Shown piece by piece: positions 62,892-63,216 of a stretch of DNA of 64,000 bases. The DNA comes from a bacterium (lineage in GTDB: Bacteria > Patescibacteriota > Minisyncoccia > UBA6257 > JAGOQP01). Location of the stretch: contig JAJXZH010000032.1 in the NCBI GenBank assembly GCA_021780155.1, forward strand, positions 8,889 through 72,888, read 5' to 3'. The notes beneath the pieces were generated by a model, which was not told where the DNA came from, ran no database searches, and saw only the letters and a program-made list of their open reading frames with translations. Within the stretch, counting starts at the first letter, position 1, and every line of letters starts with the position of its first letter. Made by a program: the position numbers and the translations under genes.

Positions 62892-62963
62892 GCGTGTGTA
62901 GTTCAGTGGTAGAACGCTGTCCTGATAAGACAGAGGTCGAAGGTTCGATCCCTTCCACACGCA
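62892..62963 (+). tRNA. tRNA-Ile(GAU)
   Basis: Anticodon loop CTGATAA, T-loop TTCGATC, discriminator A. Confidence 0.85.
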
Positions 62964-63216
62964 CAAATAAAATAATTTATAAAATTATTTTATTAGCGTG
63001 AAGGAAGGGATCGAATGCGAGCCCCCGTGTTGGAAAATAGGAGTCCCGACTTGTCGGGACGACGTAAGAAACCCTAAGGTTTCTTAGGTGGGGGTCGGGG
63101 GTGAGCGGTGAGATAGCGCGGCGTCCTTCCACACGCACAAATAAAATAATTTATAAAATTATTTTATTAGCGTGAAGGAGGGGATCGAATGTGAACCCCC
63201 GTGTTGGAAAATAGGA
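62951..63216 (+). repeat. Two ~91-bp direct repeats spaced 175 bp apart, each starting with the tRNA-Ile 3'-terminal 13-mer and trailer, separated by an 84-bp hairpin module
   Basis: ccttccacacgcacaaataaaataatttataaaattattttattagcgtgaagga(a/g)gggatcgaatg... occurs at 62951 and again at 63126. Confidence 0.8.

Follow-up and report, generated by a model that had tools for sequence, protein, structure and literature searches.

Direct and inverted copies of tRNA 3' ends around palindromic hairpin modules downstream of tRNA genes in a patescibacterial genome

tRNA genes are classic landing sites for mobile DNA, and the elements known to use these sites are kilobases in size and encode an integrase of their own. 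Cis-mobilisable elements of the CIME type are kilobase-sized and are derived from known ICEs. In Salmonella, tandem inversion duplications (TIDs) contain direct, inverted and direct copies in succession. Tandem arrays in tRNA-type sites have been described for the ssrA islands of Dehalococcoides (PMC3146451), integration of elements is known to leave partial tRNA genes (PMC9897764), and a model for inverted triplication has been published (PMC4689423). Here, we analysed two arrays in the window (that is, the whole 64,000-nt stretch of DNA studied, whose GC content of ∼36%, genes and retrieved relatives suggest a genome of the Patescibacteria type), one downstream of a tRNA-Ile gene and the other downstream of a tRNA-Ala gene. 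Their parts are designated a (the tRNA 3' end from the T-loop onwards), b (an AT-rich palindrome centre or terminator-like hairpin), c (an inverted a including the whole T-loop) and B (a GC-rich module of three stem-loops, about 100–109 nt). By comparison with described systems, their closest working likeness would be the att-site repeats of tRNA-integrating elements together with the partial tRNA genes left behind; they are REP/BIME-like in composition and inverted-triplication-like in order. No prior description of the layout as such could be found in the literature searched, which was an incomplete library.

As in the attL/attR sites of prophages, ICEs and genomic islands located in tRNA genes, one end of the array has an intact tRNA gene and the other end a displaced copy of the tRNA 3' end. 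The position of the repeat boundary in a tRNA loop and tandem accretion are also features of tRNA att sites, and the occurrence of occupied and unoccupied states among relatives may be another, although the relatives lacking an array (see below) differ in gene context. In contrast with such sites, the units here are about 150–290 nt, and no integrase, cargo or autonomous partner was found for them; moreover, each unit adds an inverted tRNA end and the identity is short of a loop-sized overlap. CIMEs and MITEs resemble the arrays in being small, gene-less DNA bounded by repeats and presumably served by a trans-acting enzyme. However, the terminal inverted repeats of MITEs are constant and their target duplications short, whereas here the c/a inverted repeats change with each tRNA and the duplication is 13–93 nt, and a MITE in the strict sense was therefore rejected. 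REP/BIME elements are comparable in that B is a mosaic of short GC-rich stem-loops and one of its hairpins (hairpin g) belongs to a multi-copy intergenic family. On the other hand, the stem sequence of the hairpin is not restricted to single species but conserved in many phyla, and all three copies of hairpin g in the window lie in tRNA arrays, whereas other metagenome-assembled genomes (MAGs) contain many copies (at least 119 loci). TIDs and ODIRA inverted triplications (PMC4689423) have in common with the arrays the direct-inverted-direct order and a junction at a short palindrome, but the copies here are tens of nucleotides rather than kilobases long and the second junction is occupied by the dispersed module B. 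In addition, such triplications should have palindromes at both junctions and shared flanks, whereas the trailers differ at tRNA-Leu(GAG) and at the Leu genes of L028 (see below). Finally, the arrays are similar to integron attC arrays and the attP site of CTX-phi in that an imperfect palindrome of 60–80 nt (a-b-c) is repeated at unit boundaries, and the order a-b-c-B-a is that expected from insertion of a hairpin-bearing circle at a folded-hairpin site. Integron attC sites differ in other respects: here there are no RYYYAAC ... GTTRRRY core sites (the a-b-c hairpins show only the T-loop GTTC/GAAC) and no IntI, the arrays are anchored to a tRNA gene, and c pairs outside the unit's own a. An attC identity was rejected on the lack of core sites.

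The first array is anchored by an intact tRNA-Ile(GAU) gene (62892–62964, plus strand, as are all features of this locus) without an encoded CCA, which was identified by both ARAGORN and Rfam (RF00005, 75.3 bits) and is 100% identical in three other loci examined below (L141, L134 and L135). An earlier note had claimed that the 3' end of this gene and its trailer, a stretch of about 91 bp, recur 175 bp downstream around a block of 84 bp. The repetition is real, but a repeat search gave different dimensions: the direct repeat is 93 nt long (62951–63043 and 63125–63217), 90 of its 93 positions are identical, with three mismatches, and the start-to-start spacing is 174 nt, which leaves a hairpin block of 81 nt (63044–63124) between the copies. 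The hairpins described for this block, GTCCCGA..TCGGGAC, AAGAAACC-CTAA-GGTTTCTT and GGGGGTCGGGGGTGAGCGGTGAGAT, were all found as stated. The layout from 5' to 3' is a, b, c, B and then a, b, c and d' once more, where d' is the initial 28 nt of B and still falls within the repeat, followed by unique flank. The first repeat copy (A1, comprising a1, b1, c1 and d'1) starts inside the tRNA gene at the 3' strand of the T-stem. Its first part, a1 (CCTTCCACACGCA, 62951–62963), is composed of the T-stem 3' strand, the acceptor 3' strand and the discriminator, and corresponds to the last 13–14 nt of the tRNA gene. It is followed by b1 (62966–62994), an AT-only palindrome with 13-bp arms and a 3-nt loop detected by the repeat search, by c1 (GCGTGAAGGAAGGGATCGAA, 62996–63015), the inverted tRNA 3' end with the complete T-loop, and by d'1 (TGCGAGCCCCCGTGTTGGAAAATAGGAG, 63016–63043), which shows homology to the beginning of the tRNA-Leu module in L131. 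The remainder of B contains hairpin g (GTCCCGA-CTTG-TCGGGAC and then GACGT, 63043–63060), a member of a cross-phylum palindromic element family; hairpin f (AAGAAACC-CTAA-GGTTTCTT, 63066–63085), which has a conserved stem and a variable loop when compared with L141 and L131; and the G-rich 3' end GGGGGTCGGGGGTGAGCGGTGAGAT (63090–63114), a stretch that ends in GGTGAGAT. In L141 as well as in the units at Leu and Ala, the terminal GTGAGAT motif of B lies immediately 5' of the tRNA-end copy. A linker of 10 nt (AGCGCGGCGT, 63115–63124) is species-specific, with TT at the same place in L141. The second copy (A2, 63125–63217) contains a2 (63125–63137), b2 (63140–63168), c2 (63170–63189) and d'2 (63190–63217), carries the three mismatches to A1, and gives way to unique flank from 63218.

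The inverted copy, the argument that A-B-A is different from a simple duplication, and the cross-phylum hairpin family were all absent from the earlier note. c1 is the reverse complement of the T-loop, the T-stem 3' strand and the acceptor 3' strand of tRNA-Ile; positions 62944–62956 and 63003–63015 are complementary at 13 of 13 bases, and the alignment score of 13.5 was reached by none of 300 shuffles. Since c contains the T-loop in reverse-complemented form, it is a true inversion, and a decayed second tRNA gene was rejected for the same reason. Together, a, b and c at the Ile locus form one imperfect palindrome of 72 nt (62944–63015; repeat search) centred in b, and in the predicted fold they lie within a single hairpin. 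The copy order is thus direct, inverted and direct (a, c and a). Because B occurs only once, a single contiguous tandem duplication cannot yield A-B-A, which requires either insertion or recombination within A, or duplication followed by deletion.

It had also been claimed that a second tRNA locus of the window, Ala(UGC), is partially duplicated around a related module, and our data agree with this. The anchor is a tRNA-Ala(UGC) gene on the minus strand (21670–21743; ARAGORN and Rfam), and the array on the same strand (21301–21687) consists of a 164-nt unit repeated 2.3 times, with copies 98–99% identical and the same layout as at Ile. The order is tRNA end (TTCCGCTACGGTCCA), AT-rich hairpin, GCGGATTAGAATC, GC-rich hairpins and tRNA end again, in which GCGGATTAGAATC corresponds to the T-arm in inverted orientation (P=0.013). 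Copies of a begin at 21670, 21506 and 21342 (given as + coordinates of the reverse complement), those of hairpin g occupy 21531–21548 and 21367–21384, and those of c lie at about 21616–21628 and 21452–21464. When the two modules were compared directly, the Ile and Ala units were found to have an oriented 33-mer in common, TAG(A)GAGTCCCGAyTTrTCGGGACGAyGTrAGA, so that both partial 3'-end duplications indeed surround related modules. Only one Ala unit is present in four other assemblies, as against two in the window, and each of the window's two unit variants occurs singly in those assemblies. This difference is either a real copy-number polymorphism or an assembly expansion, and the second Ala unit may be such an expansion.

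The Ile array was also compared across assemblies. Its A-B-A arrangement was found unchanged in L120, L121, L128 and L130, four further assemblies of this species that come from different samples and sources, and thus it is not a one-off assembly artefact. In a related species (L141), the flanking proteins of which are ∼70% identical, the gene order is as in the window (DprA, two small proteins, tRNA-Ile, tRNA-Val and a 121-aa protein) and the array site is occupied by a, b, c, d', B, a and b, followed by unique flank. The block from tRNA-Ile to b2 is 93–100% identical between the window and L141 and has sharp edges: b, c and d' are 97.4% identical, the rest of B 92.6%, and a2 and b2 100%, whereas the DNA upstream of the tRNA gene is only 25% identical, and the downstream spacers 30–49%; the neighbouring promoter/5'UTR is 93% identical. 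Such near-identity amid diverged flanks implies that the array is either constrained or recently exchanged. A scan of metagenomes with the 3' 25-mer of tRNA-Ile returned only two loci (L134 and L135), both of which have the identical 25-mer without an array and differ in gene context from the window; one of them has the 5' half of another tRNA-Ile upstream. Some contigs deserve attention with regard to assembly. One contig (L123) combines the Ile locus with a tRNA-Leu(GAG) locus, the two being joined within B, and another from the same sample (L129; not the sample of the window) starts at 63122, at the second repeat copy; hence the arrays either recombine ectopically or confuse assemblers. Contig ends often fall at arrays (L124, L126 and L129). 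The possibility that L123 represents a high-GC island integrated at tRNA-Ile was rejected given its hybrid nature, and its 261-aa protein with a GC content of 67% had no PHROG match and no viral relatives. Other tRNA fragments were observed in the window: an old tRNA-Val 3' half (63343–63382), 87.5% identical to the tRNA-Val of L141, lies downstream of a replacement tRNA-Val, and an orphan tRNA 3' fragment is located at 21093–21119. These nearby fragments suggest that tRNA genes are recombination sites in this genome.

Further copies could be identified at other tRNA genes and in other genomes, which argues against two unrelated slippage events, the outcome that the earlier note had named as the alternative. 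Altogether, the layout was observed at no fewer than seven tRNAs from three lineages. It should be noted that loci from other phyla were ascertained via the hairpin motif and imply nothing about the share of tRNAs in general that carry arrays. At tRNA-Leu(GAG) in L131, a hairpin is followed by an inverted T-arm (GGATTTGAAC), a B-like module and then TTCCTCTCCCGCGCAC, the Leu 3' end. Over 55 nt, this module and that of Ile are ∼91% identical, whereas a and c correspond to the tRNA of the locus. Next comes a second unit, which differs from the first, and then a third tRNA-end copy; the three copies have only 10–16 nt of tRNA sequence in common, and the trailer differs each time. Short-range copies of tRNA 3' ends, 93–270 nt downstream, were also present at tRNA-Leu-CAG and Leu-CAA (L028) and tRNA-Gly-GCC (L084) in Gracilibacteria, at tRNA-Pro (L038), at tRNA-Gly (L088) and at tRNA-Sec (L061). 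The identity of the L084 copies ends 12 nt past CCA, and the L061 copy adjoins an apparent C-terminal tyrosine recombinase motif, as judged by eye. A degenerate copy was seen at tRNA-Lys in a Bdellovibrionales MAG (L060). The Gracilibacteria genomes with arrays probably recode UGA. In seven arrays (Ile in the window and in L141, Ala, Leu-GAG in L131, Gly-GCC in L084, and Leu-CAG and Leu-CAA in L028), the left edge of the direct copies is always within the T-loop, at positions 57–61. Array-bearing tRNAs have the inverted T-arm copy 31–67 nt downstream, and none was detected at the window's remaining five tRNAs or at 18 further ones in the fetched loci. In L028, L038 and L088, hairpin modules are nested in a redundant partial tRNA copy, within its T-loop: in L028, c precedes a short loop and a direct GGGTTCG, with the module inside the T-loop of that copy, and in L038 and L088 hairpins are inserted past the GGTT of partial tRNA copies.

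Distribution of the module hairpin was examined by an exact scan with the pattern GTCCCGA-N4-TCGGGAC-GA-N-GT in one genome per species. At least 119 loci were detected against an estimated chance expectation of ∼4, often with many copies per MAG; the matches listed included Pirellulales, Omnitrophota, Dehalococcoidia, Ignavibacteria, Thermodesulfovibrionia, Smithella, Patescibacteria, Gracilibacteria and others. The hairpin usually lies in a longer palindromic frame, (T)GTCAT-X-GAGGA-[hairpin]-GACGT-X'-ATCTC, whose 5-nt arms X/X' covary between subfamilies (ATTGC/GCAAT, ATTTC/GAAAT, ATCAC/GTGAT, etc.). The inner hairpin is interchangeable (GTCCCGA..TCGGGAC, TCCGCC..GGCGGA or GCGAAGC), and such a swap was seen even among close relatives, with GTCCCGACTTGTCGGGAC in the window and C(A/G)AAGC in L141 and L131. 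Most family copies are away from tRNAs, whereas a profile of 121 foreign hairpin copies gave exactly three matches in the window, all of them within the two arrays and all in tRNA sense. No Rfam family covers the hairpin family, and nothing relevant to the hairpin or frame sequences was found in the open-access literature searched. The support for the hairpins from covariation, which the earlier note had made a test, is weak: it consists of three pairs with compensatory changes when the AAACC/GGTTT hairpins of Ile type and Ala type are compared, and of the covarying outer arms of the family, and neither signal separates DNA from RNA structure.

We also looked for genes and elements that might be responsible for the arrays. 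The 29 window ORFs scanned, which included all of those of 269–450 aa, contained no recombinase or transposase Pfam domain; they were housekeeping or unassigned and included DprA, a ComFC-like protein and type IV pilus genes. The Ile and Ala units (164–174 nt) contain no ORF or integrase and are crossed only by short chance ORFs, and promoter and terminator predictions inside the units gave nothing beyond chance. Viral contigs scanned with two module patterns gave no match, nor did blastn of the unit against phages and plasmids, and a phage or plasmid attP origin was thus rejected. At the gathering score, Rfam 15 detected only tRNAs in the window and 18 loci, and at E-values up to 10 the region 62800–63450 yielded, besides tRNAs, only generic miRNA-precursor-like matches to the a-b-c palindrome, so that an RNA family known to Rfam was discarded. 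Two other origins were rejected: reverse transcription, as the copies include genomic trailer and not CCA, and a casposon-like target duplication, as neither terminal inverted repeats nor casposase evidence was present. Literature on tRNA-targeting MITEs or arrays in Patescibacteria, searched in an incomplete library, yielded no account of the present layout.

The anatomy of the arrays, their recurrence across tRNAs and lineages, the T-loop boundary, the polymorphism and the near-identity across species are direct observations. On this basis, the arrays are very probably a product of recombination at the DNA level, in which the tRNA 3' end is present in direct and inverted form together with dispersed palindromic modules, rather than a result of slippage or an artefact. 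[quoted passage not shown] Mobility itself is inferred here, as are the mechanism of recombination and the direction of insertion. In such a process, [b-c-B] would be a gene-less miniature insertion module that enters the tRNA gene with a recombination junction in the 3' half of the T-loop, either by Campbell-type insertion of a small circle or, alternatively, by one-ended recombination in a naturally competent cell, with the incoming DNA anchored at the tRNA. A replacement 3' end and a hairpin would come with the module, so that the tRNA would stay intact, and the displaced original 3' end would persist as the downstream copy. Unequal crossing-over would then alter the number of units, B modules would be exchanged between tRNA loci and between species, and the enzyme would act in trans.

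Insertion of modules is suggested by several lines of evidence. First, A-B-A with a single B is the product expected of insertion into A. Second, the direct copies start at the fixed T-loop positions 57–61 in all seven arrays, and the differing trailers of the Leu(GAG) copies as well as the end of the L084 identity 12 nt after CCA point to junctions at defined sites and not to local copying. Third, B is ∼91% identical between Ile and Leu while a and c fit the local tRNA. Fourth, the sharp-edged identity of 93–100% to L141 is found despite diverged flanks, two loci (L134 and L135) lack an array despite an identical tRNA-Ile 3' end, and the number of Ala units varies (one in four assemblies and two in the window). 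Finally, DprA, the ComFC-like protein and the type IV pilus genes in the window are competence functions, as the alternative route of entry would need. The displaced tRNA fragments in the window and the precedent of partial tRNA genes produced by integrating elements (PMC9897764) point the same way. The following points are against it, besides the signs of local copying considered with the main rival below. Neither a recombinase or transposase in the 29 window ORFs nor a free or element-borne copy was found, and no empty site of the same synteny was found among the relatives retrieved. The source from which B would obtain an a and a c matched to each new tRNA is not explained, the identity to the left of a is short of the full 7-nt T-loop overlap needed by a classical tyrosine integrase, and the cross-species conservation could reflect function instead. 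A still more specific proposal, which we regard as possible yet doubtful, is that tiny, gene-less palindromic modules of 150–300 nt form an undescribed class, kin to the hairpin family of many phyla, that would home to the T-loop and 3' end of tRNA genes, each with a replacement 3' end and an inverted copy, and spread between tRNA loci and species. The replacement tRNA end and the inverted copy would possibly constitute a folded-hairpin attachment site mimicking the duplex tRNA gene.

The main rival is hairpin-driven local template switching, which appears somewhat less likely, although both mechanisms may operate. Snap-back at the quasi-palindrome of the trailer and near the T-arm would generate a direct-inverted-direct triplication, the redundant T-arm-derived junction would later be colonised by a REP-like B, and unequal crossing-over and gene conversion would complete the arrays. 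The order a, inverted a and a is that of an inverted triplication, and at Ile, Ala, Leu and L084 a-b-c is a single trailer-spanning palindrome centred in b. Since c pairs with T-loop bases outside a and this palindrome spans the trailer, the arrangement looks like local inverted copying; however, the a copies have direct T-loop bases and not the reverse-complemented loop of a T-arm snap-back. The restriction of c to array-bearing tRNAs, always 31–67 nt downstream, and the position of the L028, L038 and L088 hairpins in the T-loop of a redundant tRNA copy also favour template switching. The trailers speak in both directions: those after both a copies are identical at Ile and Ala, as local duplication predicts, but they differ after each copy at Leu-GAG and at Leu-CAG of L028. 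The occurrence of one layout in distant lineages, built there from sequences that are unrelated, is suggestive of a generic structural mechanism. The identity of 93–100% to a species with unalignable flanks is unexplained by template switching unless the array is functional or transferred, and the dispersal of B still needs a separate mechanism.

In view of the strong conservation of the array, another candidate explanation is that the unit is a small structured RNA gene, which we consider improbable. A c:a helix would close the hairpins of B, and the RNA, with tRNA-like termini, would be excised from the co-transcript by tRNA-processing enzymes; its 5' and 3' termini and terminator would be the same as those of the tRNA, mimicking an acceptor/T-arm minihelix. 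Non-coding conservation of 93–100% across species, equal to or above that of the neighbouring promoter/5'UTR (93%), is consistent with this, and so is a predicted fold that is far stabler than those of shuffles (z=−8.5 and −11). [quoted passage not shown] Other points against an RNA gene are that no promoter was predicted within the units, with the terminator-like b located upstream of c, that Rfam gave no match even at E-values up to 10, and that the number of units is variable; the unrelated B sequences of other lineages argue against a homologous RNA.

Two unrelated tandem duplications by replication slippage, next to tRNA genes by chance, are very unlikely. Both arrays are head-to-tail with copies 97–99% identical and hairpin-rich DNA is prone to slippage, but a single tandem duplication does not give A-B-A with a B unique at Ile, both arrays begin at the same tRNA position and share the oriented 33-mer, and the Leu units are unlike each other; recurrence of the layout at seven or more tRNAs in three lineages and the shared module largely refute this explanation. 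Least credible of all is an assembly artefact, by repeat-induced mis-joining or by strain variants unrolled into a tandem, for although L123 is a hybrid inside B, three contigs end at arrays and the window's two Ala unit variants are single in other assemblies, the Ile A-B-A is identical in four other assemblies and present with differences in another species, those contigs name a k-mer of 141, which exceeds the 93 nt of the repeat, and the concern is limited to the second Ala unit.

If the modules are mobile, these cassettes would be among the smallest tRNA-targeting elements known and would point to a recombination activity supplied in trans, or to tRNA-anchored recombination driven by transformation, in bacteria with reduced genomes. 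In this case, a cross-phylum palindromic family that is absent from Rfam would also gain a link to tRNA biology. If the arrays are instead products of template switching, they would indicate that inverted duplication has hotspots at tRNA terminators. In both cases, the arrays make tRNA-like fragments, break assemblies and can give hybrid contigs such as L123, with consequences for tRNA annotation and MAG quality.

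Hairpin g (GTCCCGA-CTTG-TCGGGAC), which lies within the GC-rich hairpin module of the tRNA 3'-end arrays (module B), is a member of a palindromic element family in which many phyla are represented (at least 119 loci, L001-L119, one genome per species). The frame of this family is (T)GTCAT-X-GAGGA-[inner hairpin]-GA(A/C/G)GT-X'-ATCTC, in which the 5-nt arms X and X' covary and the inner hairpins are swapped among GTCCCGA..TCGGGAC, TCCGCC..GGCGGA and GCGAAGC. The copy number per MAG was high, with tandem copies at times; examples are found at L036 2815-2837, L052 4534, L046 1838 and in L101. 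Rfam contained no family for this cross-phylum element.

Partial tRNAs were also observed in other contigs. Partial copies of tRNA-Pro (L038, about 7830-7880) and tRNA-Gly (L088, 2233-2620) carry inserted TCCGCC..GGCGGA hairpins in the T-loop, immediately 3' of GGTT. In the latter contig, the leader and the 5' two-thirds of tRNA-Gly are duplicated and flank a module with hairpin g. In addition, a relative with an identical tRNA-Ile and no downstream array (L135 1330-1433, JGI Ga0172379_10100719) has a 34-nt tRNA-Ile 5' half of another allele (GCGCAAGTAGTTCAGTGGTAGAACGCTGTCCTGA), located 24 nt upstream of the intact tRNA-Ile.

One contig (L123, ENA ERZ27236853 k141_231260) is a hybrid of the tRNA-Ile and tRNA-Leu(GAG) loci with its junction within module B, and its inverted copy of the tRNA 3' end (segment c) is a mosaic with substitutions of both loci. 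Either a subpopulation has undergone ectopic recombination between the two loci, or the hybrid is a chimera of the assembly. The same contig (1875-2402) and the related contig with the tRNA-Leu(GAG) array (L131, 1450-2235) encode P0003, a 261-aa protein that occurs in only three contigs. Its coding region has 67% GC, compared with about 38% for the contig, and is preceded by a long 5' leader that includes GTCCCGATTGGAGTCGGGAC. P0003 had no match in PHROG, and its precomputed Pfam domain annotation was empty.

The window itself contains two in-frame tandem repeats within long ORFs: a 60-nt repeat of 4.8 copies (1853-2142, in ORF 1517-2260) and a 63-nt repeat of 7.5 copies (56512-56983, in ORF 55186-57039). 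An orphan tRNA 3' fragment extending from the T-loop to CCA (AGATTCAAATCCTTCCCGTTTTCGCCA, 21093-21119, minus strand) is flanked by tRNA-Ser and a GC-rich terminator hairpin, and does not belong to any of the window tRNAs. Three window tRNAs lack an encoded CCA, and each is directly followed by CAAA(A)T (Ile, 62965; Ala-UGC, 21669; Val, 63323). Finally, the functional tRNA-Val (63248-63322) lies 21 nt upstream of the 3' half of an older tRNA-Val (63343-63382, plus strand). This half starts at the anticodon stem, runs through to the 3' end and shows 87.5% identity to the tRNA-Val of a related species (L141). The acceptor stem of the functional gene differs from that of the older half. The locus is a tRNA gene replacement, in which the displaced half was left behind.
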